A DNA stretch of 63,509 bases, the filler included, from Atractiella rhizophila (lineage: Eukaryota): the NCBI GenBank assembly GCA_021432655.1. It is 7 parts of 7 records of this genome, joined end to end, with 100 filler letters (N's around TTAATTAATTAA, not from the genome) between each part and the next. Parts side by side here need not be neighbours in the genome. Positions count along the whole stretch, not along the records: positions 12,019 to 23,921 come from MU272022.1; 6 more parts are not named here. One strand, written 5' to 3'. The position numbers and the translations under genes were made by a program. Shown piece by piece: positions 10,365-47,852 of this stretch. The notes beneath the pieces were generated by a model. The model worked only from the letters and a program-made list of their open reading frames with translations. It did no database searches and was not told the origin of the DNA. The stretch's first letter is position 1. Each line of letters starts with the position of its first letter.

Positions 10365-11000
10365 GCGCAGACCCACCATTTCACGGAATTTTACAACTCC
10401 AGCGACTGGTAATGCCTTGGTAAGGAGGTCTGTAGGCATGGACTCGGTAGGACAGAAGACTAGGGTGATTTGGCCTGCTTTAACAACATCTCTGAGCCAG
10501 TAGAAATGAAGATCCAAGTGCTTCATGCGTCCATGATGCTCTGGATTCTTGCTGACTTGCAGGGTGCTATTGTTGTCTGGGTACAGCGTTGTAGGACCCT
10601 CTGGAGCAAAACTCATTTCTTGCGAAAGATGCTTGAGACATACCACTTCTTGCCTGCAGATACGGCTGAAATGTACTCTGCCACGTAGTTGAGGGCGTCA
10701 ACAAGGACTACAACTTGCTTCTCCAACTCACTGCCCCTCCCCCAATTGTTAGGACATATCCCCCGGTTGAACAACCGGATACTTGCATCCTGCAAAGTCT
10801 GCATCGCAAAATGCCTTGAAGGGCTGAGAGATAGTGAAGTCTGAAGCAAAATACTCAATGGACAAGTCCTGTATGCCCTTGAGATAACGAAGAAGGTGTT
10901 TAGCAGCTTCCCAATGCTTCTTGCCAGGATTAGAGAGGTCTTTTCCGAGGACAGAGACAGCGCGAGCGATATCTGGACGAGTGGCGACCAAGTTCCTTAT
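10365..11000 (-). mobile_element. Ty1/copia retrotransposon relic (RT C-terminus + RNase H), frameshifted
   Basis: ATRPDIARAVSVL...HWEAAKHLLRYLKG...FCDADFAG, EYISA, and DNNSTLQVSKNPEHHGRMKHLDLHFYWLRD...DLLTKAL. Confidence 0.92.
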
Positions 11001-11045
11001 CAAGTTTCTTCTGCCATTGACGTCCTCCTTGCCTTGTGCCATAGA

Positions 11046-11918
11046 TGTTAGTTGTAGTGTGTTGTGTTGGTCATCTGCCTCTTATGACTCATATGAGGCA
11101 TCACTATGTAATTTAGTTTGCCTAGGAGTGTTGGTGCTCATTGTTGATCACCAACTACTCCTAGGTATGTCTCTCTATACTTCATCAATGCCTCAATTAT
11201 TGACCACCAACTACTCCTAGTCTTAGATCCTTACATGGTAGCGAGAGCTGGTGGCTAGGATTGCACTTTGCCACACCCATCACCTCCCCCCTCCTCCAGA
11301 CCACATTTTCACCCCTCCTGCACTCACATTTTGCTCAATTTCGATGATCAAGACAGATCTGTGATCCTCAGACCTTCCTTTACCACCTCAGAAGGTGTCT
11401 GCTTACTAAGGAATCAAGAAATATCGAAATCTATCACATTACCACCCACTTCCTGCCTCAAAACGCACTTTGCCACCTGGACTCAAATTTTTGACAAATT
11501 TGGACATTATAGGGCATATTTTGATCGTGAAACACTGCGCTACAACTTTACTAGGAACCATCTTGGTTACAATAAGTGAAAATTTCGAGATAGCCACTCC
11601 ATCACCTCCTTCATACCCCCAAAATGCAATTTTCAACTTTTTGGAGTCAGATCTGGTCTGATCTGGACGATTTTATTGCCATTGGATGTACAATAGGCTA
11701 TTCTGCTATCCTACCACAGATTACCTTGATCAGAAGAGTCAAAATTTTGAAATTTGCCACCATCACATCATCATCACATCATCCCCTACCTCCTTTCTCC
11801 ATCACATCAGTGGATCTTAGGACTCAACCACAGGCTCTAGGAGGATGTTTGGGATGGAAATGGCTCTTAATGGGTTGGAATTTGCTGGGCTGAACAGTCT
11901 TGCTGCAGCAAATGATGT
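11046..11918 (+). mobile_element. 5' LTR (11046-11235) + tRNA-iMet-type primer binding site + start of internal region
   Basis: TGTTAG...CCTTACA is followed immediately by TGGTAGCGAGAGC, which resembles the Ty1/Ty3 iMet PBS TGGTAGCG. Truncated at the contig end. Confidence 0.7.
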
Positions 11919-12018
11919 NNNNNNNNNNNNNNNNNNNNNNNNNNNNNNNNNNNNNNNNNNNNTTAATTAATTAANNNNNNNNNNNNNNNNNNNNNNNNNN
12001 NNNNNNNNNNNNNNNNNN
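11919..12018. other. Artificial contig linker
   Basis: N44-TTAATTAATTAA-N44, which gives stops in all six frames. Confidence 0.98.
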
Positions 12019-12097
12019 AACTGGTCGAAAACTGGTCGACCAGTTTTGTGCTGTGGGGAAACTGGTCGACCAGTTTTGAGCAGACTCGCCCAAGGGG
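12019..12097. repeat. Palindromic subterminal repeats, probable DNA-transposon end
   Basis: Perfect palindrome AAAACTGGTCGACCAGTTTT at 12028-12047, repeated at 12059-12076, plus a half copy at 12019. Confidence 0.55.
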
Positions 12098-12292
12098 TCG
12101 GAGTTGGTCGGCGTTTCATGTGTACATGTCTAGTCTTGCATCAAAGTTCAAGGGATTGATTATGAGCTTGAGGTTTGCATCGATGTGGGTCGTATCATGT
12201 CTTCACGATTTGAGCACCACAAGTGCGTCTTGATGCCACAAAGTCTTCTTTGGGGTCAGGATACTCTTTTCATACTCATCCACCTTTTATCA

Positions 12293-12627
12293 TATCTTGG
12301 TTTGTCAAGACATAACACACAGAGGAGGTGCTGACGAGCATATGAGGGCTTTCCATCAGACTCTGCTCAGGACTCAAGCGATAGATTGACTTGTGAGGCA
12401 GAGGTTCCTACCTTCGAGCCATCAGCTTCTGTGTGATGGATTTTGCCTCTGAGATCCAGCTGCACAAGGGTAGCTCCCTTTCCTATCTTGGTTTGTCAGG
12501 ACATAACCATGTAGGGGGTTCAAGCTCCTGTCATGAGGATCTTTGTCCCCAGTCAGGCAGATTGACTTGCAAGGTAGAGGTTACTACCTCTGAGAGTTCA
12601 AATCCTCATGATAGGTCCTTACTACAT
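12293..12627. ncRNA. Two tandem copies of a putative structured RNA motif (unclassified)
   Basis: Conserved block A TATCTTGGTTTGTCARGACATAAC (12293, 12484) and block B AGATTGACTTGYRAGGYAGAGGTTMCTACCT (12383, 12559). Each B block is enclosed by a stem whose sequence differs between copies. Confidence 0.4.
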
Positions 12628-13339
12628 CTCCTCACAAGTGAGGGAGGATTACAAGTGCTTTAGGCGATGTTTTGTTGTGATTTCCTCAGACTCAATCATT
12701 GTCGCTCACTTGTTGTTATAAAGACCTTTTTGAGCCTGACACATGTACAGATGGAGGCAGAGGCGATGAAGCCAACTTCCTTCTGAAGTCTGGGAGGGCC
12801 TGTTCGCTCAGCGCTGCCTCGCCTCAGTTTTACATCCAAGGATGGAGATATTTTTTCTTTTCGTCAATGAAGACACATCTTCCCCCCAATGGGTTCGATG
12901 TAAAGGCTTCTCCTGAGTGAGATCCATCTCACGATCACCTCTAGAAGTGTCTATTGCCAATGTCTCTACGACCTCTTATGAGATGGATGTTACAGCATTC
13001 GGATTACCCCGCCGATTCCTGCTGAGCATACCCGCATCGTCCGGTAGGGTTTTGTGTCCCCCTGACGTGATGACCCCAAGATAAATAGCAAGGTTCCAGC
13101 ACGATCTCTTTACAGGGGCAAACATCTAAGTGTCCCCATTATGCTCAGTAAGTCTCTCGTCAACACCAGCTTCGGGGTGTCCTCGTCGCCAGCTCATCGG
13201 GCGACCGGTTTGGGTGATTCGTTTGTCTTTCATGTCTAGCCTTTCTGCTTTCGCCAGGAGTGTTTTGCCTTTGGTTCTTTTGCATGGTACTTTGTATCTG
13301 TAAACAGCTTTCATTCATTCAGAATCACTACGGAGTTTT

Positions 13340-14333
13340 TTATTCCATCTTGTCATCATCATCCCTGACTTCTTGTCTCTTCCTTTTGCCGATGGCCCTC
13401 TGGGTATCATCGAATTGCCATGCCGCGTGAGACAGGCTCTTCATCTTGAAGATCTCATCATTCCTGATGCAGTCAATTGTGACAACCATCGCAGCATATG
13501 TGTCCACCATTGCGTTATGGTTGTGCGTGAGCTCCCAGTCTGTAATTTCCTTGAAGAGAGTAGCAAGCTTCTGGGGCCAAGGATACTTCTCATATCGGGT
13601 GTTTCTGAGTTTGAGGAGCTGGTAGGGGTCAAAGACCTTCCTCTCGTATGGGTTGAGGTCCACCTCGATTTCTTGGAATTCTCTCATGAGGATGGGCCAG
13701 CCGAATTCCTTTATGTTATAACCAAAGAGTCCGGATGATTTCTTTGTGAAGTGGAGCAGTCGAGTGTCCTTGAAAGTGGCACACCACATGATGTCCTTGC
13801 CATAGATCCCGTGCACATCACTGGCTGGTTTGAGGATGACAAGGTCAGGAAAGACCGTATGTTGAAGGAGAAGTGGCAATCGTGGTGCTTGGGGAGTACA
13901 ATGAGGCCTATCTCAACGATATGTCGCTGAGGGTGCGCAGTCTCGTGGTCTCCAGGTCGATGCAGATGACAAAGTCTTTCCACCTCAGTCCCATTGATGT
14001 GGTGTACTTGACAAGTTTTCTATATCCATCCCAAGGGTGTGTGTCGCCTTGGTTGAGTGGCCTGACGTCCATGGCCTGTTCAAAGTAGCAACAGAAGAGG
14101 TTCTGGCTGCGCGAGTTGAGTCCGTCAAGGTCGAGTGTGTCAACGGCCTCTGGGAGGTCCTCTACGAGGGTGCTGCGTAAGGAGAATCTAAAGGCGTCGT
14201 CTGCCGATTTCGTCGCAAAGCGAAATGCTTCTTCAATATGGTTCTGGAGGGTCCTTGCTCTTGTGTGGTAAGACATGATTTCTTTTTTGGTTTTCTGTTT
14301 GGCAATTTTATCAGCCTTTATTCGTCTGGGCAT
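13340..14333 (-). pseudogene. DEDDh (DnaQ/Pol III epsilon-like) 3'-5' exonuclease, intronless, two frameshifts
   Basis: ExoI VICIDLETT, then HIVEIGLIV, ASDVHGI, ExoII GYNIKEF[G] (Asp replaced), VFDPYQL and ExoIII HNAMVDTYA, spread over ORFs 13908-14333, 13711-13983 and 13340-13879. Confidence 0.8.
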
Positions 14334-14410
14334 AGTTTAGAGGTTCAATCATTGTATTAGTTTTCTGAGGAGTTCTTCCTATACAGATATCATATGCATA
14401 TCTATTAGAT

Positions 14411-15260
14411 TCAGTAGCCCTTGGCTTTTCTAGCTCTGTATACAGCAACGCGTAATTTGGGGGTAGCTTGAAGCATATTTTTGTTCTTTCAGAGATTGAT
14501 GGAGGCATCTCAAGTTCTGTGGCAGTAGAGGCGAATTCATCCACTGGGGGACGAATCCTTTCCCTTTCTGTAAATGGGTTCGACTCCACTTTGAAGAGGA
14601 GTGGGAGGATATCTTTCTTATTCTCCTTCTCTTCTAGATAGTGCAGGCGATCCTTGTGCCTGACCATAGATAGTTGTGAGCTTATGATCTTGAGGGGGTG
14701 TCCTCTACGTTGGAGGTATACTGTGAAGAGTGAGATCATCTGGTCAAATTCTTTGATACTCGAGCATGCCCTAACATATCTGATGGCTTCTCCTTTGATG
14801 AACTCAGTCTTCTTTTTGTGCTCGTGGTATGAGTGAAAGGGAAGGTACAGGTACTGATTCACCTTCGTTTGAAAGATCTTGGTGGCCAGTCGTCCATGAG
14901 AGGACAATTCCTTGTCCTTTATAGGTGGTGAGATCAAGAAAGTCCACAGACTCGGTGGACATATCGTGTGTGTGACTTATCGTGGGGTTCAAAGAGTTGT
15001 ACTCGTTGACAAAGGCTTCTGCTTGATCCCATGTTCCAAGGATGAGGACAAATATGTCAATCGATATATGTCTTGAAGAGTATGAGTTTGTTGGTAGAGA
15101 GCCAGCGTTCGACAAGGTCCATCTCGAGCAGGTGTAGGTACAGATTCACATACTGGACCGCGACTGGAGTCCCCATGGCAGTGCCATTCTTCTGTTGGTA
15201 GCACCTGCCTTGAAACTGGACGTAGGTCTGTTGCAGCACGAATCGTAGCTCCTCCGGATC
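14411..15260 (-). mobile_element. Penelope-like element (PLE)-type reverse transcriptase, 5'-truncated, frameshifted
   Basis: YVQFQGRCYQQKNGTAMGTPVAVQYVNLYL, YID(+1 nt)DIF, SVDFLDL, YLYLPFHSYH...FIKGEAIRYVRACS...YLQRRGHP and ICFKLPP. No GIY-YIG domain follows. Confidence 0.85.
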
Positions 15261-16049
15261 CCAGACAATGGAGGAAGCAAGGGATAACCAGTTAGACGTC
15301 GTGCAGCGAATCTCTCTTTCATTTACAATAAGCAGCACAGGAATTGATAATTGATAGTCCTCTCAAGTCGCAACTTCGCATTGTTCTTGAGCTTTCAAGA
15401 TGCCATCCTTTCATTGAATATACCTCACCCTTCACTCTGTTTGTCTCTCTTCTTTTACCGGTCTTGCTGTTCTTTCAGGCTTTGTGGATGTCTCAGCGAC
15501 GATCAAATAGAACATCAAAGCACTCGCGTCGTTACTTGCTTCATAAGTGTACATTGCTCGGAATGCAACTCCTTGGCCCCCATCCCAAGTTACGTTATCA
15601 TTTAGCTAGTAGAAACTCAGAATAAGACACTTGAAGAATAGTAAGAGGGATCGGCGCGCACCAGTAGCGAATGGGAGAGCACCAGAGTGATGTTCAACAT
15701 GCGAGATGTCCCACAGAACTTTTCAAAAGTTCTGTGGGGTGTCATATCATTGCTAGCGCCTGCATGGTCCTCCTTCATTCACATTCCCTGTGTTTGTGTT
15801 TTGTCCCAATGTGGTGATGATACTCTCTTTCAGTTCTTTCCTTCTTCCTTGTATCTTTAACCTTGCTCCTAAGAACCCCCAAATTTTCAGGCTAACTTGA
15901 TGTGTCAAAGAGATATTGCACTTAGAAAGAATTCATTGCTATAGAGATCTATTAGTACATGTCAATCCCACGTTGGAAATTCCATAGACCCATAATATCA
16001 TCGAAAATGAAGGTAACACAAACTTGATGTGAACCGAGGTAAGATGTGA

Positions 16050-17170
16050 TCATCCACGTGAATAAGGACTCGTAAGATCAGCGAGAGTTTCTTGTCTCAG
16101 CAATAGCCTTGCCGCTTTTCCCACCATGGCTTTGGGGTGCTCTTTTTCCATATACACCTCAGTCAATCCCACAATAGTTCCAGCTTCTTCCCACTCTCCC
16201 AGCTTGATGTTGGCCATGCCTGGAGCATTAAGCCTAAAATAACGATTAAGTCTCTGATTTCGCTTTAATGTCTTGCTGACATTCTCCGTTGTAATGTCGC
16301 ATTCGGTAACCAATGAACTCATACTTTTTACAAGTTGTAGGTTGGATCCAACACCAGGTATAAGAGCTTCTTGACCTGTTCCCAGAGAGACTAAGCAGTG
16401 CAGTTGGCTGTCGTTCGCTAGAAGTTGGTCCTGGTCCAAAGCATAGTAGGTAGGATGGTTATAGCCCAAGCCTCCGTCGATGAAAGTTTGTGCGTTGATC
16501 ATGATGGGAGGAAAGAAAGTGGGTGCAGCTGAGGTTGCATGGGCAGCCTGATATGCCGTACATTTCCTATCGAGTCGAGTTGAGTTACTGAAGTTGGTAA
16601 ACATGTGTGCCGTCCTCACGTTCGCGCCATATTTTGCGACGACAAACATCTTGCAGAGTTCTTCGTGTCCTGGATCATACATATCAAAGTCAGCAGTTCC
16701 AGTAGGAGAGTGCTTTATGAAAATCTCCTTGATTGCTGTCTCGATATTCTCTGGTTTGAATTCGTAGGTTGGAACCATTAATCCAGCGCCAGCATTCCAT
16801 GCTTCGGATATTAGTGGGGTCGCTGGCATCTTCTTCGGAAAGATCTGACTAGAGAGATCGTGTAAGCATCGATGCACTCGTCTACCGCCATTCCAAGTCG
16901 TGCGAGCATAAGAGCTATGAGACTGCCTGTCGAAGTTCCCCCAATGATTTCGAAAAAGTCACAAGGCCTGAGACTTCCCCGAAGACTGTGCCTCAAGTAT
17001 TCCGGCGCTGACAAGATGATCTTCAATTTTGGCCATGATGACTCCTCCCCCATCCAGAGTAAGCAACGGACAAGTTCCTGTTCCTTCGTGTTCAGTTCAA
17101 GCCAGGAAAGAGGATTTCTTTACGAACAACTCGAAGACGGCTCAATAGGGAGGGATTCATTTACACTTCC
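16050..17170 (-). pseudogene. Patatin-like phospholipase (PNPLA8/iPLA2-gamma-like), frameshifted, intronless
   Basis: LLTLDGGGV, PCDFFEIIGGTSTGSLIALML (GxSxG), AAHATSAAPTFF, FIDGGLGYNHP (DGG) and VSLGTG, spread over three frames. Confidence 0.85.
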
Positions 17171-17422
17171 TATAAAAAGGGATTATACATCAAGTGAGTT
17201 CTAACGACTTTACCCTGAGCATTATGGTGGATGGGAATAGTGGTCATGAACAGGAAGATGTTGTCAAGTACCGAAAAAGAAGTCTTCATTCCATATTTTG
17301 ACAGCGCAATGAGACAACATGTACAGCAAATGATGGGAAAAAGTACGGATGGTATCTGAATGGCCAAGCAGAGCTTCGTATGAAGGGACAGGGTAGAGGT
17401 ATTCACAGAACAGAGTTCATTT

Positions 17423-17706
17423 GCTCATCAGTAGGATGGCTCAAAGATGCTAGAGCCCAGATCCAATACAGGAAAATCATAAAGGGTATTGGGATGCAGA
17501 ACAGCTTGTAAAACAGGTGTACCTCTTCTTTCCTCTATCTGCTGTCTGTCTCAATTTTTCTGTAGGTTGAGGAGAAATTTATCCCTGCTTCCGAAGCAGC
17601 ACATGCCGGTAGTGATCAAGCTTTGGTCATGTTTGACAACTCATCAAATCATGGCACCTTTGCAAAAGATACCCTGATTGCAACAAATATGAACCTGAAT
17701 TCTGGT
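17423..17706 (+). mobile_element. Fungal DDE (Tc1/IS630-like) transposase fragment
   Basis: KGYWDAEQLVKQ [intron] VEEKFIPASEAAH...ALVMFDNSSNHGTFAKDTLIATNMNLNSG, which resembles a common fungal DDE-family motif. Confidence 0.6.
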
Positions 17707-23921: not shown

Positions 23922-24021
23922 NNNNNNNNNNNNNNNNNNNNNNNNNNNNNNNNNNNNNNNNNNNNTTAATTAATTAANNNNNNNNNNNNNNNNNNNNNNN
24001 NNNNNNNNNNNNNNNNNNNNN
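23922..24021. other. Artificial contig linker
   Basis: N44-TTAATTAATTAA-N44. Confidence 0.98.
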
Positions 24022-34200: not shown

Positions 34201-35875
34201 CTATTCAGATGCCAACTCCACTTACATCTCTCCTGGTTAGCTCTCACGACGGCATTGTCCGCTGTGCCTCTTCAATTGTAGACCTGATACACAAGTACTT
34301 CCCTTCCTCCATCGATAAGCTGGCCCCCGAAAAGGGCATTGTTCTCGTATGTTCTTTCCTGGGTATTTGCCCTCTAATCTTTCCTTAGGGACCAAAAACC
34401 TACGATGTTCGCTGGCTGGAGATCGGACGAAAATATGGAGTTTGATCAATTTCTTTTCTCTCACGGCAGCCACGCGATAGAGTTTGGAGCATCGTACGTC
34501 CCCCCCCCCCCCCAATTGTCTCTATCGCAGGAGCCCTGAGGAGTTGACGGATGGCTAAGACAATGCATCATTGTCCGGACTGAAGAGGCCAGGGATCGTC
34601 TCAGGGAGAAAATCCAAGATGCAGGGCTGATATTGACAATTTATNNNNNNNNNNNNNNNNNNNNNNNNNNNNNNNNNNNNNNNNNNNNNNNNNNNNNNNN
34701 NNNNNNNNNNNNNNNNNNNNNNNNNNNNNNNNNNNNNNNNNNNNNNNNNNNNNNNNNNNNNNNNNNNNNNNNNNNNNNNNNNNNNNNNNNNNNNNNNNNN
34801 NNNNNNNNNNNNNNNNNNNNNNNNNNNNNNNNNNNNNNNNNNNNNNNNNNNNNNNNNNNNNNNNNNNNNNNNNNNNNNNNNNNNNNNNNNNNNNNNNNNN
34901 NNNNNNNNNNNNNNNNNNNNNNNNNNNNNNNNNNNNNNNNNNNNNNNNNNNNNNNNNNNNNNNNNNNNNNNNNNNNNNNNNNNNNNCAAGCATCCAGCAA
35001 AGAAGAGTGGTTCGAGCAAGGTCAAAACCTCTATGATCAAGGGATCCATAAACACGCAGCCTTCTGCTTTGGTAAGGCAGGAGCCCTGTGGGAGCAGCAA
35101 TTCTGGTGCGTTCATCACCATCAGGCAATCTGAGTATCATGTTAAATGCGTTATAGTTTGGCTTATGTTGATATGAAACAAGCGGACCGTATTCCACTAG
35201 GAGAAGTCGCGAAGCGCAAACAGGCATACTTAACTGCAGCGGAGAAATTCGTGGCCTGTGCGGAAGAGGACGGCGCGTCTAAAGAGTTACGATGGACAGC
35301 TTACAGGAAAGCTGCAAAGTGCTTCAGCTTCGTTGGGGAAGGAAGAAAAGCAGGTCTAGCCTATTCTTCAGGCCAAGAGTTCGACAAGGCTGTCAAAGCT
35401 TTTCTGAGCGCAGAGGCTATAGATGACATTATGCCTATCCTTTCATCACACTCAGACTTCTTGGCGAGGGAGACGAAAGAGGATGCTCGACAAATGGGAC
35501 GACTCTTCTACTTAAAGGTCGGTAGAGTTGAAGCAGCTACCCCCTTGTTTGATGATCCGGATGATCAAATTTCTTTTCTGAAACACTGGGGCTATCTGTC
35601 GAATGATATCCTTCAACAGCTTGGGCGGCATGATCAAATCGCTATCACATTGGAACAGAAGGGCGATTACTTGGCTGCAGCGAGGGAACTACAAAGAACG
35701 CAATCGGAACAGGAGGCTGAACAATCTGTTCTACTTTTTATCAAAGCTTTGTGGCAGTCGTGCTTCACAGATGTTGATTTTTCGACCGTCGTCCGAGAAG
35801 CTGCCGACACGGCAGCAAGGCTATCACCCAATCGTAGAGACGAAATCATGGTTGACGTAAGCATTCTGTACAATG
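28255..35875 (+). CDS. TRANK1/LBA1-like protein: acidic N-terminus, RelE/ParE-like domain, UvrD-type SF1 helicase, TPR repeats (partial, with duplication and gap)
   Basis: Walker A LLGRSGTGKTT, RQLFVTKSRVL, Walker B DFIYVDEAQD, FAGDTAQTI, LNVNYRSH, and TPR-like helices after 34987. A 342-N gap spans 34645-34986 and the gene is cut by the linker. Confidence 0.82.
29642..33055. repeat. About 1.7-kb tandem duplication (29642-31347 / 31349-33055), about 99% identical
   Basis: Duplicated ORFs in the track, with roughly 17 differences counted by eye. Confidence 0.95.
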
Positions 35876-35975
35876 NNNNNNNNNNNNNNNNNNNNNNNNN
35901 NNNNNNNNNNNNNNNNNNNTTAATTAATTAANNNNNNNNNNNNNNNNNNNNNNNNNNNNNNNNNNNNNNNNNNNN
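35876..35975. other. Artificial contig linker
   Basis: N44-TTAATTAATTAA-N44. Confidence 0.98.
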
Positions 35976-37255: not shown

Positions 37256-37280
37256 NNNNNNNNNNNNNNNNNNNNNNNNN

Positions 37281-47752: not shown

Positions 47753-47852
47753 NNNNNNNNNNNNNNNNNNNNNNNNNNNNNNNNNNNNNNNNNNNNTTAA
47801 TTAATTAANNNNNNNNNNNNNNNNNNNNNNNNNNNNNNNNNNNNNNNNNNNN
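47753..47852. other. Artificial contig linker
   Basis: N44-TTAATTAATTAA-N44. Confidence 0.98.

Follow-up and report, generated by a model that had tools for sequence, protein, structure and literature searches.

The stretch of DNA analyzed here, referred to as the window, is 63,509 nucleotides (nt) long and consists of joined contigs of Atractiella rhizophila. The contig at 12019-23921 (11,903 bp) carries a retroelement at its left end, running off the contig at 12019. Within this element, a reverse transcriptase (RT)-like region and a gene for a DEDDh 3'-5' exonuclease can be read, both on the minus strand, and the unit seen measures about 3.6 kb or more. A first-pass annotation, made from the sequence alone, had described the locus at 13126-15340 as a compact intronless cassette in which a Penelope-like RT is coupled to a single exonuclease open reading frame (ORF) of about 330 amino acids (aa). 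An intact ORF of this kind is not present, since the exonuclease is spread over three frames and is decayed. That the copy is decayed had been recognized before, and this was borne out by three in-frame TGA stops, four frame changes (near 15059 and 14897 in the RT region, and near 13923 and 13855 in the exonuclease gene) and a glycine in the ExoII motif of the exonuclease. The minus strand of 12019-15605 holds a dead member of a retroelement family that is multi-copy in an Atractiella-like basidiomycete, and this copy was probably truncated at its 5' end. Comparison of the window with itself revealed no second copy of the element.

The RT-like region and the exonuclease gene

Three-frame translation of the minus strand gave an RT-like reading from 15605 to 14311, which crosses the three TGA stops and two of the frame changes (Table 1). 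The motifs listed in the first-pass annotation could all be read: GTAMGTP, YID followed by DIFVL after an extra base near 15059, VDFLDL, YLYLPFHSYH, IRYVRACSS and RRGHP. The limits of the region had to be moved at both ends. The frame does not end at about 14411 but stays open to a stop at 14313-14311, and at the other side, where 15340 had been given as the upper limit of the element, the reading extends about 260 nt further upstream, to about 15605. Held against the consensus of Penelope-like elements (PLEs) as we take it to be, the translation can be read as containing RT motifs 3-7 and a thumb-like stretch. The series AMG / YIDD / FLD / YLxFxSxH...R..RxCS...RG(H/Y)P is, on this assumption, the PLE signature, and the motifs of piece F2 presumably correspond to RT motifs 5-7. 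In the N-terminal piece, we take MFYLIV...RTARPV to be RT1/2-like and WDGGQG to be a possible decayed DKG/DKN motif, the position of which reads DGG in the window copy.

Piece F1 matched RT_UG26 of PADLOC (E 0.0012) and a group II intron RT of NCBIfam (E 0.043), in both cases on the motif-4 stretch. In the ESM Atlas, F1, which spans motifs 3-5, reached Rotifera clusters at 0.94, one of them with RVT_1 on 14% of its members, and all 30 matches of the thumb piece F3 fell in PF26215 HTH_animal clusters, mostly from Rotifera, with 0.98 as the best value. A sequence search of the PDB with the RT pieces gave no matches or chance matches (a p53/S100 fusion, E 0.01), and a single-sequence AF2 model of F3 was unusable, with a predicted local distance difference test (pLDDT) value of 44. 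Based on the motifs, the two language-model look-ups and the weak matches to RT hidden Markov models (HMMs), the region can be loosely placed among the PLEs. In agreement with the first-pass annotation, Pfam found no GIY-YIG endonuclease on the 10 frames scanned at E ≤ 1, but an N-terminal endonuclease is possible, given the missing or decayed 5' end of the element. YAYDICIGRT and SYHTRARTLQNHIEE were considered as presumed GIY-YIG remnants, and were rejected because their spacing does not fit and Pfam is silent on them. Naiad PLEs are known to recode TGA to selenocysteine; such recoding of the three RT stops was dropped as an explanation, given that the same copy contains four frame changes.

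The exonuclease gene comprises about 330 codons. Its ATG at 14333 precedes the stop of the RT, and the two frames, which share a strand, overlap by about 20 nt. The length given in the first-pass annotation was therefore right, but the gene is not a single ORF and does not start separately, some 80 nt after the RT. Likewise, the motifs DLETT, HIVEIG, DVHGI and HNAMVD were found as described, whereas the set was not complete, because the ExoII Asp in GYNIKEF is a Gly in the window copy (13702-13700). The ExoI DLE and the ExoIII HNAMVD are present, the His in the latter being the mark of the DEDDh type. A related protein, P0002, has Asp at the ExoII position, which indicates that the family has the full DEDDh set and that the window copy lost one residue.

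The last 190 residues of the exonuclease were used as a phmmer query against a library of 1.84 billion representative proteins, which yielded 72 proteins at E ≤ 0.001, with E 6e-8 to bacterial-type exonucleases. Among these were P0001, which is the window's own annotated 149-aa protein, and P0002, a 224-aa hypothetical protein of Atractiella rhizophila that is 82% identical and encoded on a 4.5-kb contig. Pfam recognized RNase_T in P0002 (33 bits, cut-off 24, E 1.1e-7), and RNase_H_2 also passed. P0002 skips DVHGI and ends out of frame, as would a gene prediction that spans a further imperfect copy. The remaining 70 matches are of prokaryote type and show 26-41% identity. RNase_T was found in all nine further matches that were scanned, two of which (P0003 and P0020) also had a weak, sub-cut-off match to ExoX-like_C, and the one cluster member that has a name is called DNA polymerase III subunit epsilon. 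When aligned, the ExoI, ExoII and ExoIII columns line up across the window protein, P0002 and the relatives. Pfam was silent on the window's own broken exonuclease pieces, and the window exonuclease matched PRK06309 of NCBIfam at E 9.6e-5, below the family cut-off.

When prokaryote genomes were scanned with an alignment of the exonuclease (A3), 600 candidate stretches were obtained, of which 492 were confirmed. Identity was 26-33% for the best 80 loci, most of them with Bacteroidota names. Since the A3 search pattern was derived from the phmmer matches, this shows likeness of the domain and not its origin. A structure model based on A3 (pLDDT 67.4), in which the ExoI strand was not included, matched 43 PDB chains in Foldseek at E ≤ 0.001, with TREX2 and TREX1 at the top (E 5e-6, TMq 0.44-0.51). 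The phmmer, NCBIfam and Foldseek results agree with the first-pass annotation in that the exonuclease is a true DEDDh domain with the DnaQ/RNase T/TREX fold. P0002 was the sole relative found for the N-terminal extension (75% identity), and neither Pfam families nor GIY-YIG were detected in it.

Table 1. Coordinates of the features of the retroelement copy and of the linker blocks in the window
Feature	Positions	Strand	Remarks
RT-like N-terminal piece (WDGGQG and MFYLIV...RTARPV)	15432-15605	-	Translation; family search gave none
In-frame TGA stops of the RT	15434-15432, 15413-15411, 15365-15363	-	
RT piece F1	15057-15362	-	DYQLSIPV, QQKNGTAMGTPVAVQYVNLY, (T)YID, then stop; +1 base near 15059
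RT piece F2	14894-15058	-	DIFVLILG...NSLNPTISHTHD...VDFLDLTTYKGQGIVLS; next frame change near 14897; family search gave none
RT piece F3	14311-14898	-	ATKIFQTKVNQYLYLPFHSYH...IRYVRACSS...RRGHP; thumb-like, with C-terminal tail; stop 14313-14311
Exonuclease, first frame	13908-14333	-	125-aa N-terminal extension, then ExoI ICIDLETT (13961-13944)
Exonuclease, second frame	13856-13923	-	HIVEIGLIVLPKHHDCHFSFNIR / HIVEIGLIVLPKHH; between frame changes near 13923 and 13855
Exonuclease, third frame	13343-13855	-	DVHGI (from 13819), GYNIKEFGW, HNAMVD (13519-13502); stop 13342-13340
Small basic frame	13126-13314	-	62 codons, ATG start; probably not a gene; family search gave none
Non-coding 3' part of the repeat unit	12724-13125	-	Paralog contigs; X2 record 12 bridges 12889-13535
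Terminal-repeat-like 3' region	12019-12723	-	Runs off the contig end
Linker blocks	11919-12018, 23922-24021, 35876-35975, 47753-47852, 59587-59686, 61619-61718		Artificial

Repeat family, telomere junction and surroundings

Evidence on paralogs came from contigs of two sequencing runs of one organism, X1 and X2, which contain 94% and 80% of the sampled words of the stretch, respectively, and which were compared to it at 80% likeness. On 12100-16100 there were 130 contigs from X1 and 84 from X2. Divided over identity bands of 99% and more, 95-99%, 90-95% and less than 90%, these were 45, 27, 27 and 31 contigs for X1, and 22, 15, 23 and 24 for X2. The summed depth, which is not a copy number, was in every bin of 12100-15315 higher than the depth over 15316-16100, where one contig only is present (533.9 for X1 and 99.2 for X2). 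In the two bins across the junction between the RT and the exonuclease, it amounted to 995 and 969 in X1, and 208 and 253 in X2, compared to 578 and 103 for the window-identical contig. The cassette belongs to a multi-copy repeat, and the multi-copy contigs over 12100-16100 support the proposal that the RT and the exonuclease lie in one repeat unit. The continuous paralog cover makes it likely that the two genes are linked in other copies as well. Two metagenome runs, X3 and X4, contributed 3 and 2 short contigs of the stretch.

One X2 contig (record 10, 346 nt) is about 90% like 12414-12723, and TTAGGG repeats make up the 26 letters that follow 12723 in it. Its mean word depth is 829.5, versus 82.4 for the window-identical contig. 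(TTAGGG)n after 12723 on the plus strand equals (CCCTAA)n at the 5' side of 12723-12019 on the sense strand of the element. C-rich repeats in this position give the orientation expected for endonuclease-less PLEs, with the ORFs pointing toward the centromere, and the same arrangement is described for Coprina-1_Alen (PMC13159263) and for Terminon copies capped by telomere repeats (PMC6431247). A search of other copies for telomeric repeats had been suggested in the first-pass annotation, and the junction fits a Coprina/Athena-like kind of element.

We interpret the region between 12723 and 12019 as a terminal repeat in its 3' copy. This region contains two short direct-repeat families whose copies are 176-191 nt apart (12290-12418 and 12481-12594), and its RNA fold has a z-score of -4.4 relative to 20 shuffles. 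With these repeats, the fold and a pair of palindromes, the structured non-coding repeats that had been reported for the 3' side were borne out in part. The repeat family extends downstream to 12019. The palindromes, AAACTGGTCGACCAGTTT, are perfect, 18-19 nt long and 30 nt apart (12028-12077), and are located at the contig end; the assembly may have broken there.

To compare the coding regions with the paralog, only the best-supported differences in one stretch were used, 17 of which are listed between 13258 and 13478. All 10 listed substitutions in the exonuclease frame (13358-13478) are at third codon positions, nine of them synonymous and one changing D to E, and a 13-nt deletion in the paralog, at 13340, shifts the exonuclease stop by only 8 codons. 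Changes restricted to third positions indicate that the C-terminus of the exonuclease was kept by purifying selection while the copies diverged. The small basic ORF, which the first-pass annotation had placed downstream of the exonuclease, does exist as an ATG frame, but it is probably not a gene, since one of the four listed differences is a stop in the paralog (13281) and another changes K to E, so that it is not conserved and not kept by selection.

Contigs in both runs contain a third variant of the N-terminal extension of the exonuclease, in which 27 other letters replace 76 nt at 14163-14240. Compared to the paralog contigs of X1, the window has A for G at 68 places and T for C at 57, and the reverse at 31 and 38 places, respectively. 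All RT stops are TGA, and with this A/T excess, G>A and C>T changes seem overrepresented in the copy, as after cytosine deamination or a process resembling repeat-induced point mutation.

A patatin-like phospholipase gene is present in two frames at 16050-17119 on the minus strand (Pfam PF01734, E 2.4e-9 and 3.2e-6). Its end is separated by a few hundred bases from the RT-like frames, which lie downstream of it in the same orientation. The window copy is therefore situated beside an ordinary gene and not at a telomere. There is a perfect hairpin at 15710-15738 (14 and 14 nt with a 1-nt loop). Rfam matched mir-299 on both strands at 15696-15754, with 26.7 bits against a gathering score of 67, which is probably a chance match on the hairpin. 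A frame on another contig (10749-11081, minus strand) gave no Pfam match at E ≤ 0.001, and presumably resembles the C-terminal part of a Ty1/copia polymerase. The six linker blocks between the joined contigs are identical, each consisting of 44 N, TTAATTAATTAA and 44 N. As they are artificial, sequences flanking a block are not genomic neighbors. The plain N gaps at 34645-34986 and 37256-37280 are separate from these linkers.

Possible explanations and their weight

We consider it fairly probable (roughly 60%) that the locus represents a decayed, telomere-linked family of endonuclease-less, PLE-like elements that carries a DEDDh exonuclease gene. The layout of the family probably matches that of the Coprina/Athena kind, with an RT with PLE motifs and a thumb, no GIY-YIG domain, and a terminal repeat that abuts telomere repeats. 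What is unusual is the second gene, which starts about 20 nt before the RT stop and encodes a 125-aa extension followed by a bacterial-type DEDDh exonuclease. The pairing of a PLE-like RT with a DEDDh exonuclease appears to be undescribed in fungi.

Several results weigh against this explanation. No alignment statistic ties the RT to the PLEs: Pfam found nothing on any of the RT fragments at E up to 10, including RVT_1 and PF26215, and homologue searches with three RT queries (F3 at two lengths, and F1) were empty, which is a weak negative since a word-index method was used. The recognition of the thumb piece in the ESM Atlas was 1647, whereas most real families reach 2300, so that its value of 0.98 is weak. 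The telomere junction comes from one contig of one run, and no telomere repeats were found in the window itself. A hammerhead ribozyme was not detected by Rfam, either at the gathering score in the whole window or at E ≤ 5 in 11000-17500, and neither of the two CUGANGA cores in 12019-13400 is followed by GAAA within 90 nt; this test covered a part of the repeat, which runs on past the contig end at 12019. In JGI metagenome contigs, P0002 and an alignment (A2) gave 183 and 357 pattern matches, none of which was confirmed, and scanning IMG/VR with F3 and A2 also confirmed none. Finally, the role assigned below to the exonuclease is purely conjectural.

Another point concerns the linkage itself. 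Among the listed contigs, only the window-identical one bridges the junction between the RT and the exonuclease, so that the two genes are seen together only in the window copy. This would also fit subtelomeric neighbors that do not form one element, with a DEDDh host gene family, perhaps of bacterial descent, and PLE copies that landed beside it, both being spread as one segment when chromosome ends duplicate onto each other. Segmental duplication is common in telomere-linked repeats, Terminon arrays often trap host genes between elements (PMC6431247), and purifying selection on the exonuclease would fit a host gene equally well. Yet the start codon of the exonuclease comes before the RT stop, in the same orientation, leaving no room for a promoter of its own, the kind and degree of decay are alike in both genes, and the paralog cover is unbroken across the junction. 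Moreover, the only close relatives among the 1.84 billion representatives are the window protein and one Atractiella protein, thus there is no sign of a wider fungal host family. Taken together, we regard two co-duplicated neighbors as unlikely.

It is less probable still that the RT is not Penelope-like, and that PLE motifs were over-read in a non-LTR (long terminal repeat) element, a domesticated rvt-type gene, a retroplasmid or an endogenised virus. The lack of an HMM or alignment statistic that places the RT would fit this, as would the missing hammerhead ribozyme and the fact that the HMM matches (E 0.0012 and 0.043) are solely to bacterial RT families. On the other hand, the RT motif series is what we take to be the PLE signature, and two separate RT pieces both reach rotifer RT/HTH_animal clusters. 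The orientation of the telomere junction is a trait of endonuclease-less PLEs (PMC8557442, PMC13159263). Nothing points to a retroplasmid or an endogenised virus-like unit, both of which had been mentioned in the first-pass annotation. A chance juxtaposition of two unrelated pseudogenes, for which one could argue that only one locus is seen in full, is very improbable, considering that the genes are on the same strand with overlapping ends, that both are inside one repeat family with continuous paralog cover, and that P0002 is on a 4.5-kb contig, which is typical of repeats.

Among mobile elements, telomerase has its closest relatives in the endonuclease-less PLEs, whose priming on chromosome ends is poorly understood. 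If the locus is indeed a telomere-linked PLE-like family with its own exonuclease, active members might copy their own RNA onto chromosome ends, with the telomeric G-overhang as primer, and the exonuclease could prepare or edit a 3' end for this terminal copying step. It might trim unpaired nucleotides of the overhang, thereby placing a paired 3'-OH on the template, or alternatively trim the 3' end of the RNA, or remove misincorporated bases. In such a trimming role it would resemble telomerase, which is reported to cleave primers. A broader proposal would be that endonuclease-less telomeric PLEs recruited a DEDD exonuclease at least twice, a DEDDy type in the rotifer Athena/Terminons and a bacterial-type DEDDh one in the present basidiomycete lineage, and that 3'-end trimming, of the telomeric primer or of the template RNA, is a working part of endonuclease-free terminal retrotransposition and not the activity of a passenger gene. 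This is tentative, and we would at present rather doubt it.

If true, an endonuclease-less PLE RT would have been paired with a 3'-5' exonuclease for a second time, independently, in a fungal host, with a different exonuclease subfamily and with codon-level evidence of selection. Whether terminal retrotransposition depends on 3'-end processing could then be tested directly. It would also be a likely instance of a eukaryotic retroelement having taken up a bacterial-type gene. Should the two genes be linked by position only, the locus would be an ordinary decayed subtelomeric repeat.

Comparison with known systems

In the literature covered, which included few subscription journals, no report was found of a PLE, or of any fungal retroelement, that carries a DEDDh exonuclease. 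The closest known elements in fungi are those of the Coprina type, which share with this family the fungal host, an RT and thumb without GIY-YIG, a size of a few kb and, going by the one paralog contig, a terminal repeat abutted by telomere repeats (PMC13159263, PMC8557442). Coprina-1_Alen is described as telomere repeats, a terminal repeat, ORFs toward the centromere, and again a terminal repeat, with repeats at both ends (PMC13159263). The ORFs of Coprina point away from the chromosome end, as they appear to do in this family. Coprina elements are described with one ORF, and in A. lentis with two, a coiled-coil ORF1 and the RT as ORF2, and with no nuclease (PMC13159263, PMC8557442), whereas here a DEDDh exonuclease gene is located downstream of the RT. 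Naiads and most Chlamys aside, every PLE clade has a hammerhead ribozyme in the flanking repeat (PMC8557442), and fungal PLE hammerheads are reported to have a long helix III (PMC4209133). In the present family, differing from Coprina, a hammerhead ribozyme and a 3' reverse-complement telomere repeat were not seen in the part up to the contig end at 12019, beyond which the 3' end of the element lies.

The Athena elements and Terminons of bdelloid rotifers are likewise endonuclease-less and telomere-attached, contain accessory 3'-5' exonuclease ORFs and have 5'-truncated, telomere-capped copies (PMC5408684, PMC6431247), and most ESM Atlas neighbors of both window RT pieces are rotifer clusters. 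DEDDy exonucleases are reported for Athena/Terminons and for Juno/Vesta elements (PMC5408684), and 5'-truncated Terminon copies are said to be capped by telomere repeats (PMC6431247). The remark in the first-pass annotation that DEDD exonucleases accompany PLE RTs in bdelloid Terminons was correct in substance, but those are of the DEDDy, RNase D-like type (PMC5408684, PMC6431247), in contrast to the DEDDh exonuclease found here, which is nearest to Bacteroidota-type DnaQ-like proteins. Terminons, moreover, are rotifer elements of up to 40 kb with many ORFs, whereas the present unit is from a fungus and measures about 3.6 kb or more. A Terminon would be recognized by its giant size, its many ORFs, its Athena-type RT and its DEDDy exonuclease, and the unit seen here does not fit this description.

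Outside the PLEs, KolobokD is an example of a eukaryotic mobile element with an accessory DEDDh (DnaQ) exonuclease (PMC9587614). It differs in being an animal element with a DDD/E transposase and no RT, and its exonuclease is like TREX, ERI1 and exuperantia. With bacterial DnaQ-like/ExoX-like DEDDh proteins of about 250 aa, the fungal exonuclease shares 26-41% identity over the core, with the three Exo motifs aligned. It lacks their C-terminal FGKHKG (ExoX-like_C) and contains a unique 125-aa N-terminal extension, and, unlike these bacterial proteins, it resides in a eukaryotic retroelement.

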